A model generated the notes under the pieces. It worked only from the letters and a program-made list of their open reading frames with translations. It made no database searches and had not been told where the DNA came from. 64,000 bases of DNA from an uncultured Verrucomicrobiota bacterium (lineage in GTDB: Bacteria; Verrucomicrobiota; Kiritimatiellia; PWTM01), in NCBI GenBank assembly GCA_964610105.1, contig CAZSUU010000015.1:11600-75599 (forward strand), given 5' to 3'. Shown here in pieces: positions 4,119-62,595 of this stretch. Position 1 is the stretch's first letter; the number at the start of each line of letters is the position of its first letter. The translations under genes and the position numbers were made by a program.

Positions 4119-4120
4119 TC

Positions 4121-9465: not shown

Positions 9466-9562
9466 ATGTCTCCACTGCTTGTCGGTGGTCCCTGCGGGGT
9501 GGAGGGGCGAGCCATGCGAGCCCGGCCGATGCGCGTCGATTCGTCGCGAAAGGAGAGTAGCC

Positions 9563-10495: not shown

Positions 10496-10514
10496 ACAGA
10501 CGGAGGAGCATGCG

Positions 10515-11783: not shown

Positions 11784-11793
11784 GCCGGTTCGT

Positions 11794-13323: not shown

Positions 13324-13532
13324 AGGCCAGAGCCCGAAGCGCCTTGAGGCCCGTACGTTCGACACGGCGCCGGCGTGCCGTGCCGAAGCGGAGCCATCGC
13401 AGGTCGCCCGGCTCGCCCTCCAGACGCGTCCCCGGATGGACTGCTTTGTGTTCGCCCCTCGCGCGCAAATGAGTAAACTGGATGGCCAATGGCCCGGAAT
13501 GTGATGTGGTATCGCACATGAGGAAAAGAACC

Positions 13533-14822
13533 ATGAAGTTCAGAATGTCGGCGGTGTGTCTGGCGACCTTGTCGCTCTGTGCTCTGACGGTGCACCACGC
13601 GGCGGCCGAAGGATCATCGGCCCCCGTCGTGAAGACGGGCGCGCGGGTGGCCGTCATCGGCGACTCCATCACCGAGCAGAAGCTTTACAGCCGCTACATC
13701 GAGACCTACCTCGTCGCGTGCCAGCCGCAGCTCGACGCCCGCGTGATGCAGTTCGGCTGGAGCGGCGAGCGCGCCGCGGGATTCGCCGGCCGGATGGCGA
13801 ATGATCTCACCCCCTTCAAGCCCACCGTCGCGACCACCTGCTACGGGATGAACGACGGCCGGTACGGTCCCTATTCCGACGAGGTCGGCAAGTCGTACGA
13901 GGATCCCATGCGCGACATCGTCAAGCGGCTCAAGGCCGCCGGCGCGGTGGCCGTCGTCGGCGCACCCGGCGCCGTGGACACGAAGTACTACCAGCGCGGC
14001 TCGCCGGATTCCGCGAAGGAGTACAACGCCACGCTTGCCCGCCTGCGCGACATCGCGCGCCGGGTGGCCGCGGACGAGGGCATGCCGTTCGCGAACGTGC
14101 ACGACGTGCTGATCGAGACGATGTCGAAGGCCAAGGCGGCGCGGGGCGAAGGCTATGACGTCTGCGGCGGCGATGGCGTCCATCCCGCCCCCAACGGCCA
14201 GCTCGCCATGGCCTACGCGTTCCTCAGGGCCATGGGATTCGACGGCGACCTCGGAACGATCACGGTCGATCTGGCCGGCCCGTCCAGCGCCGCGAACGGC
14301 CACCGCATCGTCGGGCAGGAGGGCGGCACGGTGCGGATCGAGAGCGCCCGGTACCCGTTCTGCTTCAGCGGCGACGAGCAGTCCTCCGGCAGCCCGCGAA
14401 GCATCCTCCCCTTCCTGCCGTTCCAGCAGGATCTGAACCGCCTCACGCTGGTCGTCCGGAACGCGAAGGGACCGAAGGTGAAGGTGACATGGGGCGACGC
14501 GGCGAAGGTCTTCGACCGCGCGGACCTGGAGAAGGGCATCAATCTCGCGGTCGAGTTGCCCGAGAATCCCTTCTCGCCGGCCTTCAAGGGCGTCGACGGC
14601 GCCGTGGGGAACAAGCAGGCCTTCGAGACCTTCATGATCAAGAACAACATCACCGAGTATCCCCAGGCGAAGAGGTTCATCGGCCAGGACGCGGAGGCGC
14701 TGGCCGCGCTGGAGGCATTCCACCGCAAACTCTGGGAGCGCGAGGAACGGCTGCAGGCCGCCGTCAAAGCCGCCTTCCAGCCGGTGCAGCACACGATCGT
14801 GGTTGAGGATGCCGCGCCGTAG
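13533..14822 (+). CDS. secreted SGNH/GDSL-family hydrolase (lipase/esterase/carbohydrate esterase)
   Basis: AGGAAAAG Shine-Dalgarno sequence 8 nt upstream. Signal peptide MKFRMSAVCLATLSLCALTVHHAAA. Block I VAVIGDSIT, block III GMNDG and block V GDGVHP are present. An alternative start exists at 13518. Confidence 0.72.
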   Translation: MKFRMSAVCLATLSLCALTVHHAAAEGSSAPVVKTGARVAVIGDSITEQKLYSRYIETYLVACQPQLDARVMQFGWSGERAAGFAGRMANDLTPFKPTVATTCYGMNDGRYGPYSDEVGKSYEDPMRDIVKRLKAAGAVAVVGAPGAVDTKYYQRGSPDSAKEYNATLARLRDIARRVAADEGMPFANVHDVLIETMSKAKAARGEGYDVCGGDGVHPAPNGQLAMAYAFLRAMGFDGDLGTITVDLAGPSSAANGHRIVGQEGGTVRIESARYPFCFSGDEQSSGSPRSILPFLPFQQDLNRLTLVVRNAKGPKVKVTWGDAAKVFDRADLEKGINLAVELPENPFSPAFKGVDGAVGNKQAFETFMIKNNITEYPQAKRFIGQDAEALAALEAFHRKLWEREERLQAAVKAAFQPVQHTIVVEDAAP

Positions 14823-32630: not shown

Positions 32631-33851
32631 TCACGAGACCGGCGCCGCGCCGTCCGTCGCCTGTCCTTCGAGCAGCGTCCAGCCATACCACAGCATGCGC
32701 GGCAGGTGGAACGGACCCTTCCACATCGAGCCCTTGAGCGGGCTGGCCCGGCGCCCGTCGCGGCGCAGGTAGCCGTACCACTCGCCGAACTCGCGATCCG
32801 GGAAGTGGCGAAACGACCACGCATGCACCTTGCGGTGCCACTCCGCGTACTTCGGCCGGCCCGTCATCGCGTGCGCCAGCAGCGTCGCGATGACCGCCTC
32901 GTTGTGCGGCCACCAGAACTTCATGTCCTGCCAGTACTCCTGCACCGGCCGGCCGCGCACGTCGGTGAAGTAGAGGATGCCGCCGAACTGCCGGTCCCAT
33001 CCGCGCGCCCACATCCAGTCGAGGATCTTCAGGCCGAGCGCCCGGTAGTCCGCGCGCCCGCGCAGGCGAGCCTCGTGCAGGATGAACCAGGCGCATTCGA
33101 ACGAGTGACCGGGGTTCAGCATGCGGCCGTCGAAGTGGTCGTACACCTCGCCGCGCGGCCCCACGCATTCCATGAGCGCCTTCAGCCGGGGCTTGAGGAA
33201 ATCGCGGCGGATCTCGGCCACGGCGCGGTCGATCCACTCCGTGCACGCCGCCCCCTCCACGCGCACATCGCCCAGATGGGCACGGAGTTCCTGCGCCGTC
33301 GCGATCGTCATCATCAGTGGCGAGAGCCCCTTCATCGGCCGCGTCCGCGGGTCCGACTTCGGAACGATGCGGCCGGGCTCCCGGTGGTACCGGAGGAACG
33401 TGCCGAACGTCCGGACCGCATCCCGCGCGGCTTTCCTCTCCCCTGTCGCCTTCGCCCAGGCGGCGAACGCGATGGCGGCGAAGCACTCGCTGAAGACGTA
33501 GCGGCGCATCCTCAGCGGCCGGCCCTCGCGGGTGACGGTGAAGTAGAGTTTGCCGTTCGGGGCAAAACAGCGCCGGCGCAGGAAGTCGACGCCCAGGCGC
33601 GCCGCCTCGAGCCACGCGCGGCGCGGTTCCACGGTGTTGAAGAGCGTGGCGAACATCCACGCGCCCCGGCCCTGGAACCAGACCGACTTGTCCGTGTCCA
33701 CCACCGTCCCGTCGCGGTCGAGGGCGGTGAAGTACCCGCCGTGCCTTCGGTCCAGCCCGTGGCGGAGCCAGAACGGGATGACGTCGTCCAGCAGCGTCCG
33801 CCGGTAAAAGCCGGCCAGCCGCATCAGTTGCGCCCTGGAGTACGCGCTCAT
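32631..33851 (-). CDS. AGE-family epimerase/isomerase (N-acylglucosamine 2-epimerase-like)
   Basis: (alpha/alpha)6-barrel AGE family pattern: DVIPFW, GGYF, DKSVWFQGR, WFILHEA, GGILYF and FWWPHNEA. Start at MSAYSRAQL, the internal Met at position 60 of ORF 32631..34028. Confidence 0.75.
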   Translation of the reverse strand: MSAYSRAQLMRLAGFYRRTLLDDVIPFWLRHGLDRRHGGYFTALDRDGTVVDTDKSVWFQGRGAWMFATLFNTVEPRRAWLEAARLGVDFLRRRCFAPNGKLYFTVTREGRPLRMRRYVFSECFAAIAFAAWAKATGERKAARDAVRTFGTFLRYHREPGRIVPKSDPRTRPMKGLSPLMMTIATAQELRAHLGDVRVEGAACTEWIDRAVAEIRRDFLKPRLKALMECVGPRGEVYDHFDGRMLNPGHSFECAWFILHEARLRGRADYRALGLKILDWMWARGWDRQFGGILYFTDVRGRPVQEYWQDMKFWWPHNEAVIATLLAHAMTGRPKYAEWHRKVHAWSFRHFPDREFGEWYGYLRRDGRRASPLKGSMWKGPFHLPRMLWYGWTLLEGQATDGAAPVS

Positions 33852-33870: not shown

Positions 33871-35349
33871 TCACCGGCTTCCCGCGGCGCTGCCCCTCGC
33901 CAGCTTCCCGCGGGCATCCCGCCAGCCTCTGCCGTGATTGAGCAGCGCGGCGAGACGATCAACCTCGGCCTTGTGTGCGGCATCCTCGACGAGGTTCCGC
34001 GCGGCGAGGGGTCCGCGCTCGTGGTCATACAGCTCGCGCGCCTGCATCGCGCCGGTCTTCCGGACGATCCACTCGGTGTAGCGCCACCGCCCGCTGCGCA
34101 GGGTGTAGCCCATCAACGCCCCGCGCGGGTACTGACTGAACGAGGCCTCCTTCCACGGGCGGGCGGGGTCGGCGAGGAGCGGCGCGAGGCTCGTGCCCTC
34201 GCAGTGCGCGGGCACGCCCAGGCCGCAGACCTCGGTGAGCGTGGGATAGAGATCCACGAATTCGACGAGCGCCTCGCTCGACTTGCCGTTGCCCGCTTGA
34301 CCGGGGACCGAGACAATCAGCGGCGCATGCGTGTCAAGCTCGAGATTCGTGTGCTTGCACCACGCGCCATACTCGCCGAGCTTCCACCCGTGGTCACCCC
34401 ACAGCACGACCACCGTCCGGTCAGAAAGCGCCAGCCGCTGAATCGCGTCCAGCAGCCGCCCCACCAGTGCGTCCGTGTAGCTGACGCACGCGTGGTAGCC
34501 GTGGATCAGGCGCAGCGCCCATTTGTCATCGACCGCTCCCTTCGCCGGAATCCCGGTGTATTGCCGCATCTCGCCCCACCCTGAACCGGCTATCGGCGGC
34601 ATACCCTCCGGCCATTCGCGTTGCGCGGGTACGGCGAAGTCGGTCTCCTTGTACAGATCCCAGTATCGTTTCGGCGCGTTGAAGGGCAGGTGCGGCTTGA
34701 TGAAGCCCACGGCGAGGAAGAACGGTTTCCCGCCGCCCGCCAGCCGGCGCATCTCCTCCTGCGCCTTCACGGCCGTGCGGCCGTCAGGATACTCTTCGTC
34801 GGCCACATCGGCGCACTCGAACGCCGGACCAAGCCCCTTGCCCTTCGCGCCGTTGTCCCTCACCTCCGACGCGAGATAGCCGCGGCCCTTCCACGGACCT
34901 TCCGGATGCCAGGCGGGCAGGCTCCAGCCCTTGCCGTTATCGTCGTTCGCGTGGTGATAGATCTTGCCAAGCGACACGGTCTCGTAGCCGGCCTCGCGGA
35001 AATGCTGCGGCAGCGTGCGCACGTCGGGCAGCGTCTTGCGGAGAGGGTGTTCAAGGTCGAAGATGCCTGTCGAGTCAGGCCGCAGTCCGCTCAGCAGGCT
35101 GGCGCGCGAGGGGGCGCACACGGCCTGTTGGCAGTAGGCGCGGCGGAAGACCACGCCCGCCTCCGCCAGCCGGTCGATGTTCGGACTCCGGACGACCGGC
35201 GCCCCGAAACATCCGAGCGTTGGACGGAGGTCGTCGACCGCGATGAACAGGACATTCAGCCGCTCGGGCTTCTCCACGGCCGGTGAGGCGGAACCGCACA
35301 GAAGCGCCCAGGCAACCGCCCCCGCCCGCCAGAACACGTGATCTTCCAT
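33871..35349 (-). CDS. sulfatase (formylglycine-dependent arylsulfatase family)
   Basis: Signal peptide, then the signature CAPSRASLLSG (C-x-P-x-R). Start at MEDHVFWRAGAVAWALL. The antisense ORF 33850..34584 was rejected. Confidence 0.8.
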   Translation of the reverse strand: MEDHVFWRAGAVAWALLCGSASPAVEKPERLNVLFIAVDDLRPTLGCFGAPVVRSPNIDRLAEAGVVFRRAYCQQAVCAPSRASLLSGLRPDSTGIFDLEHPLRKTLPDVRTLPQHFREAGYETVSLGKIYHHANDDNGKGWSLPAWHPEGPWKGRGYLASEVRDNGAKGKGLGPAFECADVADEEYPDGRTAVKAQEEMRRLAGGGKPFFLAVGFIKPHLPFNAPKRYWDLYKETDFAVPAQREWPEGMPPIAGSGWGEMRQYTGIPAKGAVDDKWALRLIHGYHACVSYTDALVGRLLDAIQRLALSDRTVVVLWGDHGWKLGEYGAWCKHTNLELDTHAPLIVSVPGQAGNGKSSEALVEFVDLYPTLTEVCGLGVPAHCEGTSLAPLLADPARPWKEASFSQYPRGALMGYTLRSGRWRYTEWIVRKTGAMQARELYDHERGPLAARNLVEDAAHKAEVDRLAALLNHGRGWRDARGKLARGSAAGSR

Positions 35350-35399: not shown

Positions 35400-36317
35400 T
35401 CACCGGACCCACTCCCAGAACCCCATCGCGTCGAGTTCCGCGCGCAACTGCCTGACCTGCTCCGGCGTCAGCGTGGTGTTCGGCAGCCGGGCCGGGCCGA
35501 CGTCGACGCCGAGCATGCCCATGACCGCCTTGGCCGCGCCCATGTAGCCGAAGCCCGCCAGGGTCTTCACCAGCCGCACGCCGCGGTACTGCTCTTCGCG
35601 CGCCGTCACGAGATCACCGGCGGCAAACGCCTTCATCAGCCGCAGGTAGACCGGCGCGGCGAAGTTGAAGCCGCTGCCCACCGCGCCCCGGGCCCCGACG
35701 GCGAGCGCGGCGAGCATGGCTTCGTCGATCCCCCACGGCAGGTCGAACCCGCCGGGCGCATGCAGGCAGACCTGGTAGGCGAACAGGTCGGGATTGGTCC
35801 ACTTGATGCCCGCGAGACTGGGGATGCGTTCGCGGCCGCGCGCGAGGAAGTCCGGCATCGGCAGGGCGACGCCGGTGAGCGAGGGAATGTCGTAGTAGTA
35901 GAACGGCAGGTCCGGCGCGCCGCCGGCGATCCGCGCACAACCCTCGATGAGCACGTCCACGTCGCGCGGCTTGAAATACGACGGGGCGAACGCCGCCACG
36001 CCGGCGGCGCCGAGCAGCTGCGCCTCGACGGCCAGGTCCCGCGCATCGGCCAGGCAGTTGGAACCCACGTGTACGATCACGCGCATCGGCGTGCCGCGCG
36101 ACACCTCGATCCACCGCTGCGTCAGCCGGAAGCGCTCGTCGAGCGACAGCGAGTGGCTTTCGCCCGTGCTGCCGCCGACGAAGGCGATGTCGACCCCGTT
36201 CTTCAGGAGATGCGCCGCCTGCCGCTCCACCGCCTTCAGATTCAGCGATCCGTCCCCGTCAAAAGGGGTGTGCGTCGCCGCCACCAATCCCTCGATCTTG
36301 AATCCGTTCCTGCTCAT
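35400..36317 (-). CDS. DapA/NanA-family class I aldolase (N-acetylneuraminate lyase-like)
   Basis: Schiff-base lysine region LAGIKWTNPDL and an overall match to the DHDPS/NanA fold. GGAGG Shine-Dalgarno sequence 7 nt before the internal ATG (MSRNGFKIEG). Confidence 0.75.
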   Translation of the reverse strand: MSRNGFKIEGLVAATHTPFDGDGSLNLKAVERQAAHLLKNGVDIAFVGGSTGESHSLSLDERFRLTQRWIEVSRGTPMRVIVHVGSNCLADARDLAVEAQLLGAAGVAAFAPSYFKPRDVDVLIEGCARIAGGAPDLPFYYYDIPSLTGVALPMPDFLARGRERIPSLAGIKWTNPDLFAYQVCLHAPGGFDLPWGIDEAMLAALAVGARGAVGSGFNFAAPVYLRLMKAFAAGDLVTAREEQYRGVRLVKTLAGFGYMGAAKAVMGMLGVDVGPARLPNTTLTPEQVRQLRAELDAMGFWEWVR

Positions 36318-36343
36318 GTATGGGCCTCCGATCGCGGTTCGGG

Positions 36344-38926
36344 TCAATCCTCATGCGCGCTCTTCCGGGTGAACACCGTCATGCCCTCCGGCGCCGCGCG
36401 CGGACCGGGCAGCACCAGGCTGGCCAGCCAGCCCACGATCACGCACGAGAGGACGCCGATGAGCGCGAAACACCAGAAGACCGTCAGGCGGTGCGACGAG
36501 ACGTACCAGACCAGCGCCCCGCTGACGAGGGCCCCCGCCAGCGCTCCCCGTCCGTGCGCGCGACGGGAGAAGATGCCGAGGACGAAGAGCCCGGAGATCG
36601 TCCCCCCGAAGAGGCCGAGGACATTGAGGAAGGCCTCCCAGATCGAGCGGACGTCCGAGCGGGCCAGCCACAGCGCCGCCAGCGTCCCGCCCAGCCCGAC
36701 GACGCCGGTGAGCGCCTGCGCCAGCCGCAGGTACTGCCGGTCGGTCCGTCCCGGCGCGAGGCGGCGGTGAAAATCGGTGATGTAGGCGGTGGCGACGCTG
36801 TTGAGGCTGCTCGCGAGGGTGGACTGGGCCGCGGCGAAGACGCCGGCGACGATCAGTCCCGCCACGCCCGCGGGCAGCTCGCGCACGATGAACAGCGGGA
36901 AGATCGCATCGGTCGGCAGGGTGGGATCGAGGCGGGCCGGGTGCTGCCGGTAGAAGGCGAAGAGGGCCGTGCCGATGGCGAAGAAGAGGGCCTGGGCGAC
37001 GGGCGAGAGCGCGGCGTTGGTCCAGATCGCGCGGGCCGCGCCGCGGCGGTCCGCCGTCGTGACGTAGCGCTGGACGATGTCCTGGCTGGCCGTGTACGAG
37101 AAGAGATTGCCGAACACGCTGCCGATCATGATCACCCAGCCCGACGCGAGGGTGACGTCCCAGGTCCACGGCACGGATTGGAGCACCTTGCCGCCCTCGT
37201 TCGCCGCGGCGACGATCGCCGGGGCGCCCCCGTCGACGCGCGCCACGATCGTGACGAGCGCCCACACGGCGCCGCCCATGAGCACGATGGTCTGGGCGAA
37301 ATCGGTCCAGATCACCGCCTCGATGCCGCCGAGCATGGTGTACACGACGCAGAGCACGCCCATCAGGATGATCGACGTCGTCACGTCCAGGCGGCTCACC
37401 GTCGCCAGCGCCAGGGCCGGCAGGTAGAGCACGATGGCGATGCGCCCGCACTGGAAGAGGATGAACAGGGCGCTGGCGATCATGCGCACGGCGCCGTTGA
37501 AGCGCCGCTCGAGGTACTCGTAGGCGGAGGTCACGTTCAGCGAGCGGTAGAACGGCAGGTAGACGAGGGTGACCAGCGGCGTGAGGAGCAGGTAGGTGTT
37601 GCCGAGAAAGAGGTTCCAGCCCTCCGCGTAGCCCTTGGCGGGGATGGCCATGAAGGTGATGGAGCTGAGCATCGTGGCGAAGATGCTCACGCCGGCCGCC
37701 CACCACGGGATGCGCTGTCCGCCCCGGAAGAAATCGTCGGTGGACCGGTTCCTCCGGGCGAAACTCGTGCCCAGCCAGACCATCGCCCCCAGGTACGCGA
37801 ACAGCGTCAGGTAGTTCGCCAGGCCGAAACCGGCCTTCTGCGCCACGGGCGCATATCGCCAGATCTCCGGCGAACGGACCCCGGGCCGCGCCTCGCCGCT
37901 GGGCACCACGATGCCGCCCTGCCACGTCACGGCCGGCGCCGTCACGCGGCACGCGGCGGCCGTGCCGAACGTCGTCCACGTGTCGGTGATGGTGTGATAG
38001 GCGAGGATCGCGCCGTTGAAGCCCGGGTGCGCGGAGGGCGGATCGAACCCGTAGTGCGCGCCGTCGTCGCAGCCGAGCAGAAGGAGATGCGAGGGGCCCA
38101 CCGCCGGCATGGGCGCGGGCCCCGCCGCGGCCGGGTGCGGAAGGTCGGCGAGGCGCCTCCAGCCGGTGCGGGGCTCGTAGCGGTAGGCGTCCCGCAGGTA
38201 CGTGCGCACCGGCGAGCCGTCCGGACCCGCCCGCAGCGAGACGCCGCCGGCGAGGTGGAAGACGCCCGCCTGCACGCCCGCCGCCGCCAGGGTGCGGGCG
38301 GGCCCGGGCCAGGAAGGCAGGGGGCGCCAGCCGGCCGCGGGGGCGTCGAGGTCGAGCGACCAGAAACCGGAGGAGGCCTCCACGGCGCCCGGCGCCGTCT
38401 CGCCGCCCGCGACGTACACCACCGCCCCCGCGGCCGCGCCGCAGGCGTTGGCCAGGGGCACCGGGAGGGGCGGGAGGCGGCGGACGGCCAGGCGCGCGCC
38501 GTCCCAGTTCAACAGGAAGGCGTCGGGATGGTGCCGCGCGGAATCGCTGCCGCCGACGCACAGCACGCCGCGCTCGGTGGTGATCGACACCCCGTACGCG
38601 CGGGGGGCCGGCAACGCGCCCGCCCGATCCCATGCGCCGGTCGGGGAGGCCAGCGCGTAGACCGCGTCGTGCCAGACCTTGCGTCCGCCCTCCCACGGCA
38701 TGCCGGCGGGGAAGTTCGCGCCGCCGGCGACGAGCAGGGCGCCGCCGCTCACCCCCGCGAAGGGGCCGGCGACGCCGACCGGATCCGGCAGCGGGGGCAG
38801 CGCGGCGGCGGAGAGGCCGCCGCGGGCCGCGCCCGCACCGGCCAGCACGAGTCCGAGCACGGCCCATGCGACGCCCCTGCGCGCGCGGCCGTCCGGGATC
38901 CGACCGGTCCGTCTGCCCCACAGCAT
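36344..38926 (-). CDS. fusion protein: N-terminal Kelch-repeat N-acetylneuraminate mutarotase-like domain plus C-terminal sodium:solute symporter (SSS family)
   Basis: Signal peptide, then about 6 Kelch blades (GGANFPAG and GGETAPG repeats), followed by 13-14 TM helices with SSS family motifs. Start at MLWGRRTG, defined by the frame of ORF 36344..40039. The 5' 371 codons of that ORF overlap the plus-strand regulator gene. The exact start may be off by 1 nt. Confidence 0.75.
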   Translation of the reverse strand: MLWGRRTGRIPDGRARRGVAWAVLGLVLAGAGAARGGLSAAALPPLPDPVGVAGPFAGVSGGALLVAGGANFPAGMPWEGGRKVWHDAVYALASPTGAWDRAGALPAPRAYGVSITTERGVLCVGGSDSARHHPDAFLLNWDGARLAVRRLPPLPVPLANACGAAAGAVVYVAGGETAPGAVEASSGFWSLDLDAPAAGWRPLPSWPGPARTLAAAGVQAGVFHLAGGVSLRAGPDGSPVRTYLRDAYRYEPRTGWRRLADLPHPAAAGPAPMPAVGPSHLLLLGCDDGAHYGFDPPSAHPGFNGAILAYHTITDTWTTFGTAAACRVTAPAVTWQGGIVVPSGEARPGVRSPEIWRYAPVAQKAGFGLANYLTLFAYLGAMVWLGTSFARRNRSTDDFFRGGQRIPWWAAGVSIFATMLSSITFMAIPAKGYAEGWNLFLGNTYLLLTPLVTLVYLPFYRSLNVTSAYEYLERRFNGAVRMIASALFILFQCGRIAIVLYLPALALATVSRLDVTTSIILMGVLCVVYTMLGGIEAVIWTDFAQTIVLMGGAVWALVTIVARVDGGAPAIVAAANEGGKVLQSVPWTWDVTLASGWVIMIGSVFGNLFSYTASQDIVQRYVTTADRRGAARAIWTNAALSPVAQALFFAIGTALFAFYRQHPARLDPTLPTDAIFPLFIVRELPAGVAGLIVAGVFAAAQSTLASSLNSVATAYITDFHRRLAPGRTDRQYLRLAQALTGVVGLGGTLAALWLARSDVRSIWEAFLNVLGLFGGTISGLFVLGIFSRRAHGRGALAGALVSGALVWYVSSHRLTVFWCFALIGVLSCVIVGWLASLVLPGPRAAPEGMTVFTRKSAHED

Positions 38927-39013
38927 GCGCCCATCATACCGATCGCCCTGCAAACGACGATGAAAAGCGATTGGTTTCGTGATAGAACCTTCAATGGTGG
39001 GACGGGATGGAAC

Positions 39014-40111
39014 ATGCACCTGACGCCCGAACGGAGACCGCTGCCCCTGGCCGCCGCGGACCTGCTGAAGCGGCAGATCGCCGCCGGCGTGTGGCACGCG
39101 TACATCCCTCCCGAGCGCGATCTGTGCGCGCGGATGGAGATCGGCCGCAACACGCTCCGGGCGGCCCTCGCGCTCCTCGAGCGCGAGGGATGGATCGGCC
39201 GCGGGCATCCCGGCCGCCGCCGCGCGGTGAATCCGAAGAGGGCGACGGTCTCCCCGGGCGCCGCGGAGTCGTCGCACCAGGTGGCCTTCCTCACCGACCA
39301 GGCGCAGGACGCCCTGCCCCTGCACACCCTGCGCGAGGTGGACATGCTGCGGGTGGCCCTGGGGGAAGCGGGCTACCGGCTGGTGGTCCGCTCCAGCCAG
39401 GCCTTCCCCGCGAAGGGGCCGTCGGGCATCCTCACCCGTCTCGTTCGATGCCACCCCGCCGCGGTATGGATCCTGCACAGGTCCTCCTTCGACACCCAGC
39501 AGTGGTTTCAGATCCGCGGGATTCAGGCCCTCGTCCTGGGATGCCCCCACGAGGGCATCGACCTGCCCTACGTCACCGAGAACATCGAGGCCGCCGCGCG
39601 CCACGCGGCCGGCCTGCTCTTCACGGCCGGCCACCGCAGCGTCGCGCTCCTCTGCCCCGGCACCCGGCTGGCCGGCCACCACGTGGCCGCCCGCAGCGTG
39701 GAGGGCGTCTTCTCCCGCCTCTCCCCGAGCTCCACCGTCCGCGCCTCGTCTCACGACGGATCGGCGGACGGACTCTGCCTCCAGATCCGCACGCTCCTCG
39801 CCGGGGACGACCCGCCGACCGCGTTCATCACGATGTCCGTGGCCGAGACGGTGACCCTGGTGACGTTCCTGGCGCAACTGGGTCGCCGGGTGCCGGACGA
39901 TGCCTCCGTGCTCTGCCTGTTCGACGACCCCACGTTTTCGCAGATCGTCCCCGCAATCACGCGCTACCGCGCGAACACGGCCCACCTCGTGCGCCTCGTG
40001 CATCGCCGCGCCCTGGAGATCGCGGAAGGCCTTCCGCATCCGCCGCCGTCGAAGCTGATGTGCGAGTGCATACGCGGCCGGAGCGTGGCCCCGCCCCCGC
40101 CCCGCCCCTGA
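39014..40111 (+). CDS. transcriptional regulator with an N-terminal GntR-like wHTH and a C-terminal periplasmic-binding-protein-like sugar-binding domain
   Basis: The HTH region LPPERDLCARMEIGRNTLRAALALLEREGWI is followed by a LacI/PBP-type fold. Divergent from the symporter gene. The remaining 5' part of ORF 36320..40111 is antisense junk. Confidence 0.65.
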   Translation: MHLTPERRPLPLAAADLLKRQIAAGVWHAYIPPERDLCARMEIGRNTLRAALALLEREGWIGRGHPGRRRAVNPKRATVSPGAAESSHQVAFLTDQAQDALPLHTLREVDMLRVALGEAGYRLVVRSSQAFPAKGPSGILTRLVRCHPAAVWILHRSSFDTQQWFQIRGIQALVLGCPHEGIDLPYVTENIEAAARHAAGLLFTAGHRSVALLCPGTRLAGHHVAARSVEGVFSRLSPSSTVRASSHDGSADGLCLQIRTLLAGDDPPTAFITMSVAETVTLVTFLAQLGRRVPDDASVLCLFDDPTFSQIVPAITRYRANTAHLVRLVHRRALEIAEGLPHPPPSKLMCECIRGRSVAPPPPRP

Positions 40112-40199: not shown

Positions 40200-40979
40200 T
40201 CAGCGCCTCAACCCGCGCCGTAGAAGCGTGGCCACGCCGAACAGGATCAGCAGGCTGATCGTGCCGGGTTCGGGAATGACCTCGAGCGTCACGCTGTTCC
40301 AGACTTCCGAGCCCTGCCCCGTGCCCGTGAACGCGCCAAACAGCATGCGGTTCGCCGAAACGATGCCGGCCGGCGTCAGGGTGAACGACTGCGATCCGAC
40401 GCTCAGGCTTGCCGCGTTGTTGGTGCCCTCGATGACAAAGGTGCGAAACGTCTCGAACGCGGAGCCATCGATGACGAACCGGCTGGTCTGGTCGTAGACC
40501 ACGAGGTTCGTGTCGGCGTTGACCTCAAAATACAGGGAATAGCGGAAGTTCGGGCCCTCGAACCACACCCCCGAGTTGTTCTGGCGGCTCAGCGTGGACA
40601 CGAAGTAGTTGTTGACTCCGACGACATTGCCCGTCGTCCACGCGTGCCGGTCGATCGCCGCCGAGTACGTGAGGCGCCACAGGCCCGCGTCCGCCAAGGC
40701 CGTCTGGTCTTGCGGAGTCAGGGCGTACTGGTAGTACACGTAGCCGGTGCTCGTGGCATCCACCGTCCGCCAGCCGCCGTTGGTCGAATCGAATCCGCCC
40801 AGGTAGGCGTTGTTCACGTTCTTGACGTACGTCCACCCCGCGTCCGTGGGATTGGCCGAACTCCCCGCCGCGCCCCACACGGCACTGACGCCCGATGTGT
40901 ACCCGACGATAACCGAGGCCTGGACCGACCCGGCGAGCGCCAGCGCGCCTCCGACAACCAAAGCAAGCGACGTCTTCAT
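40200..40979 (-). CDS. PEP-CTERM sorting-domain secreted protein
   Basis: Signal peptide MKTSLALVVGGALALAGSVQA. C-terminal VIPEPGTISLLILFGVATLLRRGLRR is the PEP motif plus TM helix plus basic tail. GGAGACC Shine-Dalgarno sequence upstream of the ATG at 40979. Confidence 0.72.
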   Translation of the reverse strand: MKTSLALVVGGALALAGSVQASVIVGYTSGVSAVWGAAGSSANPTDAGWTYVKNVNNAYLGGFDSTNGGWRTVDATSTGYVYYQYALTPQDQTALADAGLWRLTYSAAIDRHAWTTGNVVGVNNYFVSTLSRQNNSGVWFEGPNFRYSLYFEVNADTNLVVYDQTSRFVIDGSAFETFRTFVIEGTNNAASLSVGSQSFTLTPAGIVSANRMLFGAFTGTGQGSEVWNSVTLEVIPEPGTISLLILFGVATLLRRGLRR

Positions 40980-41078: not shown

Positions 41079-42176
41079 GTGGAGTCGTGGCGCCTCGCCC
41101 GGCAGAGCCTGCCGCGCCAGGTGGCGCAGCGTCTGCGGTCGCTGGCGGCCGCGGGCCGCCTTCCGCCCGTGCTCCCGTCGGAGGCCGTCCTGGCGGTCCG
41201 CTTCGGAACGAGCCGCCGCACGGTGCGCGCGGCGCTCGCGATGCTCGAGGCGGAGGGATGGGTGAGCGGCGGGCAGGGGCGCCGGCGGCAGGTCCGGGCC
41301 CTCCGGGGGGGACGGGCGTGTCCGTCGGCCGCCTCCCGCCTGATCGGCTATCTCACCCCCTTCGTCCCCGAACGGTCGGGCGGCGCCGCCTTGTTTCAGT
41401 TCGAGAGCTTCCGGGCGGCGCTGCTCGATCACGGATGGAGAACGCAGGTCGTGCCCACCCACGCCGAACGGCTGGCGAATCCCGGGCGCGCACTGGCCGC
41501 CGCGGTTTCCACCGTGGGCGCCGCGGCGTGGGTCCTGCATCTCTCCTCGCCGGAGATGCAGCGGTGGTTTGCCTCGCGGCGGATCCCCTGCGTGGTGAAT
41601 GGAACGACGGATCGGGGGTCCGGCCTGTGCGGCGTGGACGCGGACTGGCAGGCGATGGGCCGCCATGCGGCGGGCACGCTGCTTCACCACGGCCACACCT
41701 CCGTGGCCCTGCTCGAACCGTCGGAGAGGACGATCGGGCTCGCGCGTCTGAACGCGGGACTGGCCGCCGGCCTCGCCGGCCGCGCGTCTCTTCACGTCCT
41801 GCGCCACGACGGCTCGGTCGCACAGATCCTGCGGGAACTGGGCCGCATCCGCCGTCTCGTCGCCCGCCCGACTGCGATCGTGGTTCACGCGTTCCGCAAT
41901 CTGCTGACGGTGCTGACCGGCTTGGCGACCCTCGGTGTCCGCATCCCCGATGACTTCGCCGTGCTGTCCACGGACGACGATCCCCTGATCGACCGCCTGG
42001 TGCCCTCGATCGCCCACTACCGGCGGGACCACGCCGCCCAGGCGCGCCGCCTGGCCGATGTCCTGCTGCGCGTCCTCGACCACCGCCCGCCGCGGCAGCC
42101 GGTCATCCTGATGCCCGATTTCGTGCCCGGCGATTCGCTGCCGCCGCGGCCGGGCAGCCGGACCGCCGGTCGGTGA
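41079..42176 (+). CDS. paralogous GntR-like/PBP-domain transcriptional regulator
   Basis: Same architecture as 39014..40111, with HTH LPSEAVLAVRFGTSRRTVRAALAMLEAEGWV. The GTG start at VESWRLA was chosen by alignment with its paralogue and to leave the palindrome in non-coding DNA. The ORF track start at 41022 is the alternative. Confidence 0.58.
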   Translation: MESWRLARQSLPRQVAQRLRSLAAAGRLPPVLPSEAVLAVRFGTSRRTVRAALAMLEAEGWVSGGQGRRRQVRALRGGRACPSAASRLIGYLTPFVPERSGGAALFQFESFRAALLDHGWRTQVVPTHAERLANPGRALAAAVSTVGAAAWVLHLSSPEMQRWFASRRIPCVVNGTTDRGSGLCGVDADWQAMGRHAAGTLLHHGHTSVALLEPSERTIGLARLNAGLAAGLAGRASLHVLRHDGSVAQILRELGRIRRLVARPTAIVVHAFRNLLTVLTGLATLGVRIPDDFAVLSTDDDPLIDRLVPSIAHYRRDHAAQARRLADVLLRVLDHRPPRQPVILMPDFVPGDSLPPRPGSRTAGR

Positions 42177-51074: not shown

Positions 51075-52373
51075 CTACCCCACGAACACCACCCGCTTCG
51101 CCTTGCCGAGGCTCCGCTCGATCGTCTTCGGCTCCACCAGCGTCACCTTCGCCGACAGCCCCAGCACCGCCTGGATCTCCCTGTGGATCCGTCTCCGCAG
51201 GGCCTCGAGGCCGCGGATCTCGTCCGAGAACAGCGCCGCCGACACCTCGATCTTGATCTCCATCTCGACCATCGGATGCGAGCGGTCGACGACGATCACG
51301 TAGTGGGGTTCCGTGCCTTCGATCTTCATCAGCACGCTTTCGATCTGCGACGGGAACACGTTCACGCCGCGGATGATCAGCATGTCGTCGGTGCGCCCCG
51401 AGATGCGGTTCATCCGCCGCAGCGTGCGGCCGCAGGGGCATTCGTCGTCGCGGAGGGACGACAGGTCGCGCGTGCGGTAGCGGATCAGCGGCATGCCGCG
51501 CTTGGTCAGGCACGTGAAGACCAGCTCGCCCGTCTGGCCCGGCTCCAGCACCGCGCCCGTAGCGGGATCGATGATCTCGGGATAGAAATGATCCTCGAAC
51601 ACGTGCAGGCCGTCCTGCTGCAGGCACTCGCTCGCCACGCCGGGCCCGATGACCTCGCTCAGCCCGTAGATGTCGATCGCCTTCAGCGGGAGGCGCTGCT
51701 CGATCTGGCGGCGCATGGACTCCGTCCACGGCTCGGCGCCGAGGTACCCCACGCGCAGCTTCGTCTTCCGGAGGTCCACCCCCTGCTCCTCCGCCACCTC
51801 GGCGATCTGCAGGGCGTAGGACGGCGTGCACGAGAGCAGCGTCGTGCCCAGGTCCTGGATGAGCATGACCTGCTTGATCGTGTTGCCGCCGGACATCGGG
51901 ATCACGGTGCACCCGAGACGCTCGCCGCCGTAGTGCAGCCCCAGCCCGCCGGTGAAAAGGCCGTAGCCGTAGGCGTTCTGCATCACGTCGTCGGCCGTTC
52001 CGCCCCCGCAGCCGAGTGTGCGCGCGATCGTGTCGGCCCACAGGGCGATGTCCTCCCTCGTGTAGCCCACCACGGTCGGCTTGCCCGTCGTGCCGGAGGA
52101 GGCGTGGACGCGGACGATGTCGCGCAGCGGGACGGCGAAGAGGCCGAAGGGGTAGTTCTCGCGGAAGTCGTCCTTGACCGTGAACGGCAGTCGCACGATG
52201 TCGTCGATCGACCGGATCGAGTCCGGGGCGACCCCCGCCTCCTCGAACTTGCGCCGGTAGAACGGCACGCGCTCGTAGGCGCGTTGCACGGCCTCGTGCA
52301 GGCGTTCGCCCTGCAGTCTCCTCAGGGCCTCGCGGTCCATGCACTCATAGGTAGGGTCGAAGATCATGGTCAT
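51075..52373 (-). CDS. paaK: phenylacetate-CoA ligase paralogue
   Basis: [15 protein letters not shown] and the same C-terminal blocks as the first copy. The two copies are about 60% identical by eye. Confidence 0.85.
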
Positions 52374-52741
52374 GTCCCCTGGTGACTGGATCCTCGCATA
52401 TCATGCCCGCCCCCCCGGTGTCAAATCCGGCGACCGTCCCGGCCGCCGGCGGTGCGGGCGCATCGGCGGATCTGCACCCGAGGCGGCCGGCCGCACCCCG
52501 GTTTCCTCTGAACAGAAGGGGCCGCGTTTGTGTCTTGAATCCTGGGGATTGCGGAGTAGCCTGCCCCCGGTCCGTCCACGCCGCCGGCCTCTCCGCGCGC
52601 CGGCCGATGGCCGGGCCGGGGAAGAGAGGATATGAGACGACGGGCACTCGCCGAGGGCGCCCTTCTGTTGGGCATCATCGCCCGGGAGAAGGGCAAGTGG
52701 ATGCTGAAGGAACGGAGTCTCCGGCTCCCGTGACGGCCGCG

Positions 52742-53860
52742 ATGATCCCCCCCACGCGATCCTGCCTGCTGTTCTCGATCGCGCTCGGCGCGGTGCCGGC
52801 GACCGGCGCCGAGGCCGCCTCCGCGTACGGGGCGGCCGCGCGCGAGGTGACGGCGTTCATCCAGACCCATTTCTGGAACGTGCGCACGGGCTTCTACGCG
52901 CACTCGCTCAAGGACCGCAGCCCGGAGTTCATGTGGGGCAACGGCGTGATGTTCTCCGCGCTGGTCGGGGCGGCGCGTCATGAATCCGCGGCCTGGGCGC
53001 CCGTGCGCGACGGGTTCTTCCGCTCGCTCGATGCCTACTGGGACACGCGCGCCCGCGTGCCCGGCTATGAACCGAGCCCCACGCGCGGCGGCGGACACGA
53101 CAAGTACTACGACGACAATGCCTGGATGGTCCTGACCTTTCTCGAAGCCCACGAACAGACCCGCGACCCGCGCTACCTGAGCCGGGCCGAGCAGTCCCTC
53201 GCCTTCGTGCTGAGCGGCTGGGACGACGAGCGGGGCGGCGGCATCTGGTGGCACGAGGAACACAAGGGCGGCAGCAAGAACACCTGCGCCAACGCGCCCG
53301 CCGCCGTCGGCTGCCTCCGGCTGGCGAAATTCAAGCAGGGCGCGGACCGCCGCGCGCTGCTCGATCGCGCCCGCCGGATCGTCGTCTGGACCACCCGCAC
53401 TCTCCAGGCCGAGAACGGGCTCTTCGCGGACAACATATCGGTCACCAACGGCGTGGTCCATCGGGTCCAGTTGACCTACAACACGGCCCTGATGCTGCGC
53501 GCGTTTCTGGGACTGTGGCGATGGGAGGGAAAGCCGGAGGACCTCGCCGAGGCCAAGCGCATCGCCCTGGCGGCGGACCGTTTCGTCAGCCGCCGCACGG
53601 GCTGCTACCGCGACTCGGTGAAATGGTCGCACCTGATGGTCGAGGCGGATCTGGAGCTCTTCCGCGCCACCGGCGAACCCTACCTGCTGGAGCGGGCGCG
53701 CAAGAACGCCGACGGCCACTACGCCGCCTGGAAACGGCGGCCCCCGGACGAGCTCATCGACCACGCCTCCATCGCGCGCCTGCTGTGGCTGCTCGCCGAC
53801 ACCGAAACGCCGGCCGGCCGGCTCTTCTGGCAGACCTCCGACCGCGTCCCGCGGCCGTGA
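52742..53860 (+). CDS. glycoside hydrolase family 76-like protein (alpha-1,6-mannanase family), secreted
   Basis: Signal peptide MIPPTRSCLLFSIALGAVPATGA. GH76-type blocks are present: YYDDNAWMVLTFLEA (the catalytic Asp-Asp pair), GGIWW and NTCANAPAAV. Start at internal Met 121 of ORF 52382..53860. Confidence 0.6.
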   Translation: MIPPTRSCLLFSIALGAVPATGAEAASAYGAAAREVTAFIQTHFWNVRTGFYAHSLKDRSPEFMWGNGVMFSALVGAARHESAAWAPVRDGFFRSLDAYWDTRARVPGYEPSPTRGGGHDKYYDDNAWMVLTFLEAHEQTRDPRYLSRAEQSLAFVLSGWDDERGGGIWWHEEHKGGSKNTCANAPAAVGCLRLAKFKQGADRRALLDRARRIVVWTTRTLQAENGLFADNISVTNGVVHRVQLTYNTALMLRAFLGLWRWEGKPEDLAEAKRIALAADRFVSRRTGCYRDSVKWSHLMVEADLELFRATGEPYLLERARKNADGHYAAWKRRPPDELIDHASIARLLWLLADTETPAGRLFWQTSDRVPRP

Positions 53861-59074: not shown

Positions 59075-61720
59075 GTGCACTCGATCGAGATACCGGGATA
59101 CGAATTGCTCGAGCCGATCGGCGAGGGCGGGATGGCGCTCGTCTACAAGGCGAAGCAGCGCTCGCTCGAACGGATCGTCGCCGTCAAGATCCTGCGCCCC
59201 GACCTGACCTCCGATCCGACCGCGGTCGTGCAGTTCAAGCTTGAGGCCAACTCCGTCGCCAACCTCAAGCACCCGAACATCCTGATGATCCACGAGGCGG
59301 GCTCCACCGAAGGCGTCCATTACTTCATCATGGAGTACGTCTCCGCCTACAGCGTGTCGACCTGGCTTCAGCGCAAGGGGCGGCTGACGGAAAGCGACGC
59401 CCTGACCGTGGCCGACGCCGTGGCGCGGGCCCTGCAGTACGCCTGGGAGAAGGCGGGGCTGGTTCACTGCGACATCAAGCCGGGCAACATCCTCGTCGAC
59501 GAGGATGGCGTGGTGAAACTGGCGGACTTCTCGGGCCTCAGCCGGACCAACCTGAGCGAAGAGGCCCAACTGCTGCAGGACGTCACGATCGGCACACCCA
59601 ACTACATGGCGCCCGAGCAGGTGCGAGGTTTTTCGACCCTGGATTTCCGGGCCGACATCTACGCGCTGGGCGCGGTGATCTACCACCTGGTGACGGGGCG
59701 GCTGCCTTTCGAGACCTGCACGGAAGAGGAGGCGATGCAGCAGCAGGTGGAGGGACACCTCGAGGATCCGCTCAAGCTCAACCCCGCGATATCCCCGCAT
59801 CTCGCCCTGCTGGTCGAGAAGATGATGGTCAAGGACCGCGACCAGCGGTACGGAAGCTGGGATGCGGTGGTGGCCGACATCGGCCGCGTGCGCGCGGATC
59901 AGGCGCCCAATCCGCCGCTCCCCTATCCCGGCTCCAGCACCGTTCGGCGCGAAATGCCGGCCGCGACGGTGCCCCGGCCCGCGCCGGCGCCGAGATTCGC
60001 GGGATCGTCGGTGTTCGCGCCGGTCGGTGTCACGCCAGCCCAGGCCGCCTCCATCGCCCCGCATCCCATCGGCACCCGCGCCCGCCGCCGCAAGCTTCTC
60101 TTCCTCATTTCGCTCGCCGCCGTCCTGCTGCTGCTCGACGTGGGCCTGATCTCGGTCGGGCTGGTGCGCAAGCACCGGACGCGTCCGCCGAAGCCGCCCG
60201 TCCCCGGGATCGCGGCCACCAACGCGACGCCCCTCCCGCCGCCGACCGCGGTGGCGGTCGTCGCTCCGGACCCCGAACCGACCCCCGTGCCTCCGCCCCC
60301 GCCGGCCGTCACCCCCACCGGCACACCGGTGGTGGCGGCCGTCCAGACGCAGGCGGTCGACGCGGCTGCGTCCAATGGGCTGCCGGCCACGGCCGTCGTC
60401 GCCGCGACGGACACCAACGCCGCGGGGACTTTCACGGGGTTGGTGGTCTCGGCCACGAACGGAGTGGCGGCGGCCACGAACGCGGCCGCGCTACCGCCCC
60501 CTGCCACCTCCACCACGGGGGGGACCGCGGTCGCGGCGTCGCAGGCCGAGAGCCAGCGCGAGCAGAAGCTGATGGAGCTGCGGGAGTATCTGAAGCTGGT
60601 GGTAAATGCCACCGGTCTCTGCCAGCGGCGCGCGTACGCGGCCGCCATCGCCGCCATGAAGGAATGGCATGACCGGAACACCCTGAATCCCCTTCGGGAG
60701 CAGGTGGCGAAGGACGTCGCCCAGCTGGAGCTGGTCGCCGCGCTTTACGCGCGGCTGGAAAACGTGCCCCGCATATCGCCGGGGATCGTCATCCAGGTCT
60801 CGCCGGAGCTGTCCGGCGAGGCGGCCTCCATCCACGGCGGCCGCGTGACGGTGATGCGGAGACTGGCGACCGGCACGGCCCAGTACGACGTCGAGCTGGC
60901 GCGCGTCTCCGACGCCGAGGTGGGGGCGTTGCTCCAGGCGCTCGACGCCCCCCAGCATCCCCTGAATCTTGCGCGCTTCCTGGCCGCGTCGGTCCAGTTC
61001 GACGCGGCCACCGCGCAGGCGGAACGGGCGTCGTCGGCCGGCCTGCCGGCCGATGACATCAAGGCATGGATCGCCGAGTGGGCGCGCGCCGTCCGGAACG
61101 TGCAGGCGGATCGGATGCTGGACGACATCAAGACGCTGACCGTCAACAGCCGGTATGCCGAGGCCGATGCCCAGATGAAGCGGCTGAAGAACATGTTCGC
61201 CGACAGCGATATCGTGCAATGGGGACGCACGGCGGAGATCGCCTCGCTCGACGAACTGCTGGAGCGCATGGCGGGGGTGGTCATGCCGGACGGGACGACG
61301 TCCTCCACCGGCGCGGTGGCCGGCACCACGTCCGACCCCACGACGCCCGCCACGGGGGAGGATCTCGACACGAGCGCCGACATCGTCACCCTGACCCCGG
61401 AGGAGCTGACCGAGGGCTTCGGGAGATACGACAAGAAGATCGTGCGCCTGCGGTTCCGCTTCAGGAGCGACATCGTCCGGGAGCTCGGCGGACAGAGCCG
61501 CACGGAGATCGGCATGCAGGCGCAGATACCGGGATTGAAGGTGGTCTTTCCCACGGACGCGGTCAAGTGGTTTCAAGGCGTGTCGCGGGTCATTTCGGTG
61601 GCCGACAACCGGGTGCGGGTCGTGTACGGAACGGTCGATGCGCAGACCCAGACGGTCCGGCTTCTCGGCCGCACGCGCAAGGCGCAGATGGGCGGCCTGG
61701 GGAGCGAGTTCAGTTGGTAG
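59075..61720 (+). CDS. membrane-anchored serine/threonine protein kinase with a Pro/Thr/Ala-rich extracytoplasmic linker and a C-terminal domain
   Basis: Hanks kinase subdomains: GEGGMALVYKAK with VAVK (I-II), HCDIKPGNILV (VIb), DFSG (VII) and PNYMAPE (VIII). A TM helix (LLFLISLAAVLLLLDVGLISVGLV) follows at about aa 340. GTG start. Confidence 0.75.
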   Translation: MHSIEIPGYELLEPIGEGGMALVYKAKQRSLERIVAVKILRPDLTSDPTAVVQFKLEANSVANLKHPNILMIHEAGSTEGVHYFIMEYVSAYSVSTWLQRKGRLTESDALTVADAVARALQYAWEKAGLVHCDIKPGNILVDEDGVVKLADFSGLSRTNLSEEAQLLQDVTIGTPNYMAPEQVRGFSTLDFRADIYALGAVIYHLVTGRLPFETCTEEEAMQQQVEGHLEDPLKLNPAISPHLALLVEKMMVKDRDQRYGSWDAVVADIGRVRADQAPNPPLPYPGSSTVRREMPAATVPRPAPAPRFAGSSVFAPVGVTPAQAASIAPHPIGTRARRRKLLFLISLAAVLLLLDVGLISVGLVRKHRTRPPKPPVPGIAATNATPLPPPTAVAVVAPDPEPTPVPPPPPAVTPTGTPVVAAVQTQAVDAAASNGLPATAVVAATDTNAAGTFTGLVVSATNGVAAATNAAALPPPATSTTGGTAVAASQAESQREQKLMELREYLKLVVNATGLCQRRAYAAAIAAMKEWHDRNTLNPLREQVAKDVAQLELVAALYARLENVPRISPGIVIQVSPELSGEAASIHGGRVTVMRRLATGTAQYDVELARVSDAEVGALLQALDAPQHPLNLARFLAASVQFDAATAQAERASSAGLPADDIKAWIAEWARAVRNVQADRMLDDIKTLTVNSRYAEADAQMKRLKNMFADSDIVQWGRTAEIASLDELLERMAGVVMPDGTTSSTGAVAGTTSDPTTPATGEDLDTSADIVTLTPEELTEGFGRYDKKIVRLRFRFRSDIVRELGGQSRTEIGMQAQIPGLKVVFPTDAVKWFQGVSRVISVADNRVRVVYGTVDAQTQTVRLLGRTRKAQMGGLGSEFSW

Positions 61721-61740
61721 CATCCGGCCGGTCTTCTCCC

Positions 61741-62595
61741 ATGAATGTCCCGGAATCCATGATGGCGCATCTCCTGCTCATCGCCGGTCGCGGGCTGTAT
61801 CCGGTGGAGCTGGCGCGCGCCGCCCGCCGTCAGGGCGTGCGACGGCTGTCGCTCATCGCGTTCCGCGGCGAGACGGACCGCGAGGTGGAAGGGCTGGCCG
61901 ACGATACCCGCTGGATTCACGTGGGGCAGCTCGGCGCGCTCCTCGACGCCGCCGGGCAGTGCGGCGCCCGCGACGCGGTGATGGCCGGCCAGGTGCGACC
62001 GACCCACATCTTCCGCGTCCGTCTCGACCGGGCCATGCTCGACCTGTTGAAGCGGCTGCCCGTCCGCAATGCTCACACCGTCTTCGGCGCGCTGGGGGAC
62101 GCCCTGTCCGCCCGCGGCATCACCCTCCGGCCCGCCTGGTGGTTCATGGAGTCGGCCATGCCGGCGGCGGGCCTGCTCGGCGGCCGCGCCCCGACGGAAC
62201 GCGAGCAGGCGGACCTCGACCTCGGCCGCAGGGTCGCCAAGGCGACCAGCGCGCTGGAGATCGGGCAGACGGTGGTCGTCAAGGAGGGCATCCTGCTGGC
62301 CGTGGAGGCGCTGGAGGGGACGGACGCGGCGATCCTGCGCGCCGGTCAGCTCGGCGGGCCGGGCGCCGTCGTGGTCAAGACGGCGCGAACCGGCCACGAC
62401 ATGCGGTTCGACATCCCGGTCGTCGGCCTCCACACCTTCCGCTCCCTTCGCCGCATCCGCGCCGCCGCGCTCGCCGTGGAGGCCGGCCGCACGATCCTGC
62501 TCGAGCGCGAGAAGCTCGCTCAGGAGGCGGCGCGGCTGGGGATGTGTTTCCTCGCGTTCGAGAGCGACAGGTCGTGCGAAGGGAGGGCGTCATGA
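61741..62595 (+). CDS. lpxI: UDP-2,3-diacylglucosamine pyrophosphatase LpxI (DUF1009)
   Basis: N-terminal LLLIAGRGLYP and the C-terminal LpxI fold. Start at internal Met 226 of ORF 61066..62595, 21 nt after the kinase stop. Confidence 0.7.
   Translation: MNVPESMMAHLLLIAGRGLYPVELARAARRQGVRRLSLIAFRGETDREVEGLADDTRWIHVGQLGALLDAAGQCGARDAVMAGQVRPTHIFRVRLDRAMLDLLKRLPVRNAHTVFGALGDALSARGITLRPAWWFMESAMPAAGLLGGRAPTEREQADLDLGRRVAKATSALEIGQTVVVKEGILLAVEALEGTDAAILRAGQLGGPGAVVVKTARTGHDMRFDIPVVGLHTFRSLRRIRAAALAVEAGRTILLEREKLAQEAARLGMCFLAFESDRSCEGRAS

Follow-up and report, generated by a model that had tools for sequence, protein, structure and literature searches.

Sialic acid transporters in the family of sodium:solute symporters (SSS), grouped as ST5, include a clade named SiaF that was described in 2021 as fusions of NanM to an SSS permease (Severi et al. 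2021, Microb Genom, PMC8461474). A published SiaF consists of a leader peptide, an N-terminal NanM domain of the cyclically permuted mutarotase type that lacks the dimerisation hairpin, and an SSS core of 13 transmembrane helices (PMC8461474). The genes often lie in nan clusters and were reported from Bacteroidetes, Planctomycetes, Verrucomicrobia, and a few Gammaproteobacteria (PMC8461474). Here we analyze a gene of this type, siaF, at positions 36344 to 38926 on the minus strand of a 64,000-nucleotide stretch of DNA (the window) from contig CAZSUU010000015.1 of an uncultured Verrucomicrobiota bacterium (assembly GCA_964610105.1). We put at roughly 0.78 the probability that siaF specifies a protein for sialic acid uptake of the SiaF type (ST5, SSS family), in which a propeller mutarotase feeds a symporter.

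The gene was noticed in a reading of the window from its letters alone (the original prediction), which proposed a single polypeptide joining a Kelch-type, mutarotase-like domain to a sodium:solute symporter. This holds, as positions 36344 to 38926 form one open reading frame (ORF) that matches both Pfam NANM and Pfam SSF and is modeled as one chain by AlphaFold2. The rationale given for the fusion, that the mutarotase would hand the transport-competent anomer straight to the permease, matches that in the SiaF paper (PMC8461474), where the beta-anomer is meant; fusions of NanM to an SSS permease, the periplasmic placement of the propeller, and the beta-anomer argument were already in print in 2021 and are not a new discovery. 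A signal-like N terminus stands where the described clade has its leader, and the locus shares with that clade the permuted NanM domain without a hairpin, the 13-helix SSS core, the lyase and NanE-II-type epimerase in a nan cluster, and the phylogenetic neighborhood of Verrucomicrobia and Planctomycetes (PMC8461474). Kinship of the transporter, fusion to NanM, loss of the hairpin, and linkage to nan genes were all found, and the gene is assigned to the SiaF clade. Unlike the published cases, the operon here contains a sulfatase, no sialidase was found among the approximately 40 ORFs of the 64-kb window, and the source is an uncultured member of the Planctomycetes-Verrucomicrobia-Chlamydiae (PVC) group with 70% GC, none of which amounts to a difference in kind.

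Both halves of the protein resemble proteins known in unfused form. Escherichia coli NanM (YjhT; 2UVK) is also a six-bladed Kelch propeller of the NanM family, located in the periplasm, with a GEAxPGxR motif containing E209 and R215, but it forms soluble homodimers by way of a helical hairpin, whereas the blade order is permuted here, the propeller is free of helices in the model, and it is joined covalently to a transporter. Proteus mirabilis SiaT (PmSiaT; 5NV9 and 5NVA) shares the 13-helix LeuT fold of the SSS half and most of its ion- and carboxylate-binding residues, but is unfused and has no N-terminal propeller. A parallel arrangement exists in Akkermansia NanM-NanZ (ST4), where an exported N-terminal NanM-like domain is also fused to a sialic acid transporter; that transporter belongs to the major facilitator superfamily and carries an added N-terminal helix that corrects the topology, which the SSS transporter here does not need (PMC8461474).

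The siaF coding sequence starts with ATG and specifies 860 amino acids, and independent gene calls on other assemblies gave the identical product. The window is approximately 70% GC and contains long spurious ORFs on both strands, two of which overlap the gene and were rejected. The first, of 1,231 amino acids (36344 to 40039, minus strand), arises where the siaF frame stays open upstream of its ATG because it runs antisense to the divergent regulator gene. The second, of 1,263 amino acids (36320 to 40111, plus strand), is antisense or read-through sequence typical of 70% GC DNA, and the real gene there is a regulator of 365 amino acids.

That long spurious ORFs are common at 70% GC is the sole prior ground for suspecting that a frameshift, sequencing error, or misassembly artificially joined nanM and siaT; no support for such an event was found. 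The original prediction had named reads or related genomes with two separate ORFs as evidence that would overturn it. Instead, the identical 860-amino-acid SiaF and the same operon recur on 20 contigs, which were assembled independently and come from several sequencing runs, and a 99% identical copy lies in a separate ENA assembly. Both PF24996 (NANM) and PF00474 (SSF) are found in all of the best 120 database homologues (52 to 99% identity), which are 784 to 917 amino acids long with the exception of one truncated 620-amino-acid entry on a 2-kb contig. Relatives were confirmed in at least 531 species-representative genomes, with one genome taken per species, and a continuous two-domain ORF was present in 80 of 80 fetched species-representative loci. 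Within the gene, GC content at third codon positions (GC3) is even across the junction (propeller half, 0.95; transporter half, 0.96), and the frame has no internal stop. An AlphaFold2 model of the full chain, built with 67 homologues, is confident as a single polypeptide, with a mean predicted local distance difference test (pLDDT) score of 88.5 and a predicted template-modeling score of 0.87. Repeated assembly, homologue architecture, and even GC3 lead us to reject an artifactual fusion as extremely improbable.

The original prediction described the C-terminal part as an SSS transporter of roughly 500 amino acids and 13 to 14 transmembrane helices. Profile searches, its suggested check on the domain boundaries, assigned the N-terminal third to NANM and amino acids 399 to 801 to SSF (PF00474, E 2e-38), and NCBIfam model TIGR00813 (sss) exceeded its cutoff of 184 bits with a score of 213. 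The SSS domain (ST5, SiaT-like) as delimited by phmmer, Foldseek, and hydropathy spans amino acids 366 to 840 (36407 to 37831, minus strand) and is predicted to have 13 helices in an N-out/C-in arrangement. When searched against solved structures with phmmer, this region matched PmSiaT (5NV9) best, at E 1e-126 over residues 5 to 482 of its 496, followed by SMVT at 4e-51. In the AlphaFold2 model, the helical bundle covers amino acids 368 to 838, and Foldseek superimposed it on 5NVA and 5NV9 with a template-modeling score (TM-score) of 0.93, a root-mean-square deviation of 2.5 Å, and 43 to 44% identity. Loop charges in the SSS half follow the positive-inside pattern and, with hydropathy, fit 13 helices with the N terminus outside; the propeller is therefore predicted to be periplasmic.

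Residues of the PmSiaT binding sites were mapped onto SiaF after the PmSiaT numbering had been checked on 20 residues named in PMC5931594, and their conservation was counted over the best 120 homologues. The carboxylate site is intact: S60, T63, and R135 of PmSiaT correspond to S421, T424, and R495, with S60 and R135 invariant and T63 kept in 118 of 120 sequences. The Na2 site is also kept, since A56, L59, A339, S342, and S343 of PmSiaT correspond to A417, L420, A699, S702, and T703, all invariant or nearly so. Gate residue R260 is retained, as are two residues of the Na3 site, D182 (D542 in SiaF) and S346 (S706). In PmSiaT, mutation of S60, T63, R135, S342, S343, or D182 abolishes transport of N-acetylneuraminic acid (Neu5Ac) (PMC5931594).

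Upstream of the transporter, the original prediction had placed a signal peptide and about 330 amino acids of NanM-like Kelch blades, and both parts can be recognized. A signal-like segment at amino acids 1 to approximately 33 (38828 to 38926, minus strand), delimited by hydropathy and charge count, has an Arg-rich n-region (6 Arg in the first 17 amino acids), a hydrophobic core at amino acids 18 to 36, and a possible A-G-A cleavage motif; the AlphaFold2 model has a low-confidence helix at amino acids 14 to 28. Alignment to 2UVK, the AlphaFold2 model, and Foldseek place a NanM-type, cyclically permuted, six-bladed Kelch propeller at amino acids approximately 37 to 361 (37844 to 38818, minus strand), and Pfam NANM (PF24996) matches the N-terminal third of SiaF in three stretches with E 1e-34 and 120 bits against a cutoff of 45. 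SiaF amino acids 42 to 141 align with residues 233 to 340 of E. coli NanM (2UVK), amino acids 151 to 262 with residues 3 to 104, and amino acids 289 to 356 with residues 153 to 220, a rotated order that indicates cyclic permutation. Only about 26 residues of the SiaF propeller are the counterpart of 2UVK residues 105 to 152. In the model, the propeller is all-beta with a pLDDT of about 96, and DSSP assigned zero helices of four or more residues at amino acids 37 to 361; by this measure and by the 2UVK alignment, the helical hairpin through which E. coli NanM dimerises is missing. Foldseek matched the propeller to six-bladed Kelch domains with TM-scores of approximately 0.78 to 0.8.

A GEAxPGxR motif in the propeller aligns its E345 and R351 with E209 and R215 of the 2UVK chain. 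These two residues of NanM are reportedly required for mutarotase activity; text searches of the literature found no secondary statement on NanM catalytic residues. Among SiaF homologues from different phyla, conservation of E345, R351, and the G-E-x-x-P-G-x-R around them is at least 90%. In a sub-clade from Bryobacterales (loci L057, L058, L060, and L079, the first two being SiaF copies that share a 1.4-Mb contig), Ser replaces the motif Arg, and the same proteins have a distinct transporter pocket, with Q58, P82, N243, and D345 in PmSiaT numbering. The Ser-for-Arg replacement in these proteins may reflect altered or lost mutarotase activity or another substrate.

Taken as a SiaF, the protein would work as follows. 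After export directed by the signal sequence, the monomeric, cyclically permuted NanM-like propeller would reside in the periplasm and run straight into the first helix of the 13-helix LeuT-fold Na+ symporter, with no extra helix needed because the N terminus of the symporter is naturally outside. Beside the outward-facing vestibule, the propeller would speed alpha-to-beta mutarotation of newly released sialic acid, probably Neu5Ac or a close derivative. The symporter would bind the carboxylate of the sugar through Ser421, Thr424, and Arg495 and import it with Na+ through the Na2 site and the partly retained Na3 site, possibly with kinetic channeling. In the cytoplasm, the co-transcribed NanA-like lyase would cleave the sugar to pyruvate and an N-acylmannosamine, which an epimerase of the N-acylglucosamine 2-epimerase (AGE)/NanE-II type would convert to an N-acylglucosamine, and a divergently encoded GntR/sugar-binding regulator probably controls the operon. 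Delivery of the transported beta-anomer from the SiaF propeller to the permease is a supported reading, in agreement with the published rationale (PMC8461474) and with the finding that the form bound by PmSiaT is beta-Neu5Ac (PMC5931594).

Retention of the NanM motif also bears on whether the propeller is an enzyme. It could instead be a tethered lectin or receptor domain that hands sialic acid to the permease without catalysis, by analogy to the solute-binding domains fused to some transporters, and Kelch propellers are commonly binding modules. To our knowledge, no cyclically permuted protein of the NanM family has been assayed, and the Bryobacterales proteins with Ser for Arg suggest that catalysis is perhaps dispensable there. 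However, conservation of the Glu, the Arg, and their surroundings at 90% or more across phyla is what is expected of a catalytic site, and the profile matches identify the domain specifically as NanM family and not as generic Kelch. We regard a purely binding role as very unlikely and favor a mutarotase.

Genomic context fits sialic acid uptake, as the original prediction held. Four co-directional, tightly spaced genes form an operon in the order siaF, NanA-like lyase, sulfatase, and AGE. The lyase, correctly anticipated as a NanA-like neighbor, is a 305-amino-acid N-acetylneuraminate lyase (NAL) homologue (35400 to 36317, minus strand; Pfam DHDPS) whose gene begins 27 nucleotides past the siaF stop. 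Its best solved relatives are the NALs 6H4E, 5AFD, and 6ARH (E 2e-64 to 6e-53), compared with 2e-31 for the best dihydrodipicolinate synthase (DHDPS), and by these scores it is closer to characterized NAL than to DHDPS. The last gene encodes a 406-amino-acid N-acylglucosamine 2-epimerase of the AGE/NanE-II type (32631 to 33851, minus strand; Pfam GlcNAc_2-epim, E 1e-46). Lyase and AGE together are the Bacteroidetes-type route of sialic acid catabolism.

Opposite siaF, where a sugar-sensing regulator had been predicted, lies a 365-amino-acid protein (39014 to 40111, plus strand) that combines a GntR-type helix-turn-helix (HTH) with a sugar sensor domain of the LacI-type, periplasmic-binding-like kind. 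Matches to Pfam GntR and Peripla_BP_3 are precomputed for the identical gene in other assemblies. The region between the two genes is 87 bp, in which a search for an inverted repeat with a seed of 6 found no operator palindrome. Farther along, a paralogue with 36% identity and the same domains, a GntR HTH and a LacI-type sugar-binding domain, is encoded at 41079 to 42176 (plus strand), and a secreted 259-amino-acid protein with a PEP-CTERM tail (40200 to 40979, minus strand) separates the two. Only 3 of the 80 related loci have homologues of these two regulators near siaF.

Linkage of siaF to sialocatabolic nan genes is thus evident from the operon, and it recurs in other genomes. Of the 80 loci, 45 have a NanA homologue no more than 10 kb from the siaF relative, mostly adjacent to it, and 16 have an AGE homologue. 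Genes of the BNR_2 sialidase family occur together with AGE and DHDPS in the four closest annotated homologue contexts (64 to 68% identity), one of which also encodes a SASA sialate O-acetylesterase. In these closest homologues, siaF is accompanied by one or two genes of the sialidase family.

Several observations weigh against assigning siaF to the uptake of sialic acid. Five residues of the PmSiaT sugar pocket are replaced in SiaF and across its clade (T58 by M419, F78 by L439, Q82 by N443, F243 by S603, and Q250 by S610), leaving N247 (N607) as the sole one retained among the six positions, and the Na3 residue S345 is A705. T58 contacts the anomeric hydroxyl and Q82 the glycerol tail, and a Q82D mutation abolishes transport in PmSiaT (PMC5931594). 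Since neither the full SiaT pocket nor the full Na3 site is retained, the protein was classed with SiaF rather than as an orthologue of SiaT. Experimental evidence on SiaF itself has been called "very scarce" (PMC8461474), and no demonstration of transport by any SiaF was found in the literature after the 2021 paper. On the side of annotation, the leader was assigned by hydropathy alone; the NCBIfam models TIGR03548 ("cyclically-permuted mutarotase") and YjhT match SiaF below their cutoffs, TIGR03548 only partially; and the best-ranking NCBIfam models for the lyase (NanA) and the epimerase (AcylGsamEpipAGE, E 2e-111) fall below their equivalog cutoffs. Finally, Pfam scans of the approximately 40 ORFs in the window found no GH33/BNR_2 sialidase; the organism may keep a sialidase elsewhere in its genome or scavenge sialic acid freed by others.

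Replacement of the pocket residues raises the possibility that the same architecture and mechanism serve a substrate other than plain Neu5Ac, either a different sugar of the nonulosonic or 2-keto-3-deoxy acid kind or a modified sialic acid, for example N-glycolylneuraminic acid (Neu5Gc), 2-keto-3-deoxynononic acid (Kdn), or an O-acetylated or O-sulfated form. Of the PmSiaT residues, only those for the carboxylate and Na+ are conserved; throughout the clade, other amino acids occupy the positions around the anomeric hydroxyl, N-acetyl group, and glycerol tail. Over the 80 species, the pocket positions form several sub-clade patterns (T58M/Q, F78L/Y, Q82N, F243S/N, and Q250P/S), which suggests several specificities, and both the sulfatase inside the operon and the origin in an uncultured PVC-group bacterium would suit an unusual substrate. 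However, AGE and a lyase nearest to bona fide NALs point to an N-acylated neuraminic acid, close homologues lie beside GH33-type sialidases and a sialate O-acetylesterase, and T58 is the least conserved binding residue among SiaT proteins, with T58A fully active in PmSiaT (PMC5931594). A substrate that departs from Neu5Ac in this way seems unlikely, and sialic acid uptake by a mutarotase-symporter fusion is the preferred reading.

The sulfatase sets this operon apart from described nan clusters that contain siaF. It is an exported, formylglycine-type S1 sulfatase of 492 amino acids (33871 to 35349, minus strand; S1_7-like; Pfam Sulfatase and SGSH_C) encoded between the lyase and the epimerase, with a signal-like N terminus and a CAPSR formylglycine motif at amino acid 78. 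Its best match in the PDB is 6HHM (E 1e-125), followed by human iduronate-2-sulfatase, and 6HHM is the ulvan xylose-2-sulfatase P18_S1_7 (PMC9096561). GC3 of the sulfatase gene is 0.84, compared with 0.92 to 0.95 in its neighbors. Of the 80 loci taken from species-representative genomes, 7 have a sulfatase homologue directly adjoining siaF (L011, L014, L015, L016, L027, L061, and L072); these come from three phyla, and one more metagenome contig (L085) shows the same adjacency.

One explanation for this placement is that the enzyme is a sialate O-sulfatase, or unmasks sulfated sialoglycans, in an operon dedicated to sulfated sialic acid, where periplasmic desulfation would precede mutarotation and Na+-coupled uptake. 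According to a 2023 review, a microbial sulfatase that acts on sulfated sialic acid had yet to be reported (PMC10017367). The idea of a dedicated sialate-sulfatase clade was rejected when the four closest homologues of the sulfatase on usable contigs (64 to 66% identity) proved to lie in loci without nan genes, three of which are polysaccharide clusters with multiple sulfatases and glycoside hydrolases (GH). The sulfatases adjoining siaF elsewhere are 39 to 48% identical to the one here, more distant than its homologues with 55 to 68% identity, and across the 80 species-representative loci the SiaF pocket residues showed no correlation with the presence of an adjacent sulfatase. The phyla concerned are very rich in sulfatases, so the linkage of these genes to siaF may be opportunistic. 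A functional link between the sulfatase and the nan genes is unproven and of low probability, and we give the sulfated-sialic-acid route only a slim chance.

On its flanks, the nan operon has the genes for F1Fo ATP synthase as well as housekeeping genes or others of sugar metabolism. Homology of AtpD puts the organism in the PVC group, and the nearest named hits are from Verrucomicrobia, Kiritimatiellia, and Omnitrophica. A hydrolase of the GDSL/SGNH family (13473 to 14822, plus strand), a fold class that includes some sialate O-acetylesterases, is encoded approximately 20 kb from the operon, with no evidence of a link to it. Positions 1 to 13323 and 61539 to 63542 encode oxidoreductases of the GFO/IDH/MocA type, xylose-isomerase-like TIM barrels, a PfkB kinase, a PIG-L deacetylase, and a GH5 enzyme, and a GH76 gene lies at 52355 to 53860. 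The GFO/IDH/MocA-type cluster and GH76 are typical of carbohydrate metabolism in the PVC group and seem to have no relation to the nan operon.

Surveying homologues also extended the range of the fusion beyond the phyla listed in the SiaF paper. NanM-SSS fusions were seen in metagenome-assembled genomes (MAGs) labeled Sumerlaeota, Armatimonadota, KSB1, Acidobacteriota (Bryobacterales and Vicinamibacteraceae), Gemmatimonadota, and Hydrogenedentes (loci L010, L030, L032, L035, L039-L040, L044, L072, and L077), labels that may include MAG binning errors.

As originally stated, the finding of a mutarotase fused to a transporter adds little to what is known of SiaF, and the one loose end is the sulfatase encoded within the nan operon. 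The modest value of the finding lies in what the locus offers to work on the family. A compact gene set comprising transporter, lyase, sulfatase, epimerase, and regulator has been assembled repeatedly and could serve for a first biochemical test of SiaF. The map of pocket residues (T58M/Q, Q82N, F243S/N, and others) provides concrete mutagenesis targets for specificity. Finally, SiaF relatives in many more phyla than reported, including lineages from soil and sediment, suggest that scavenging of sialic-acid-like sugars extends well outside animal mucosa.

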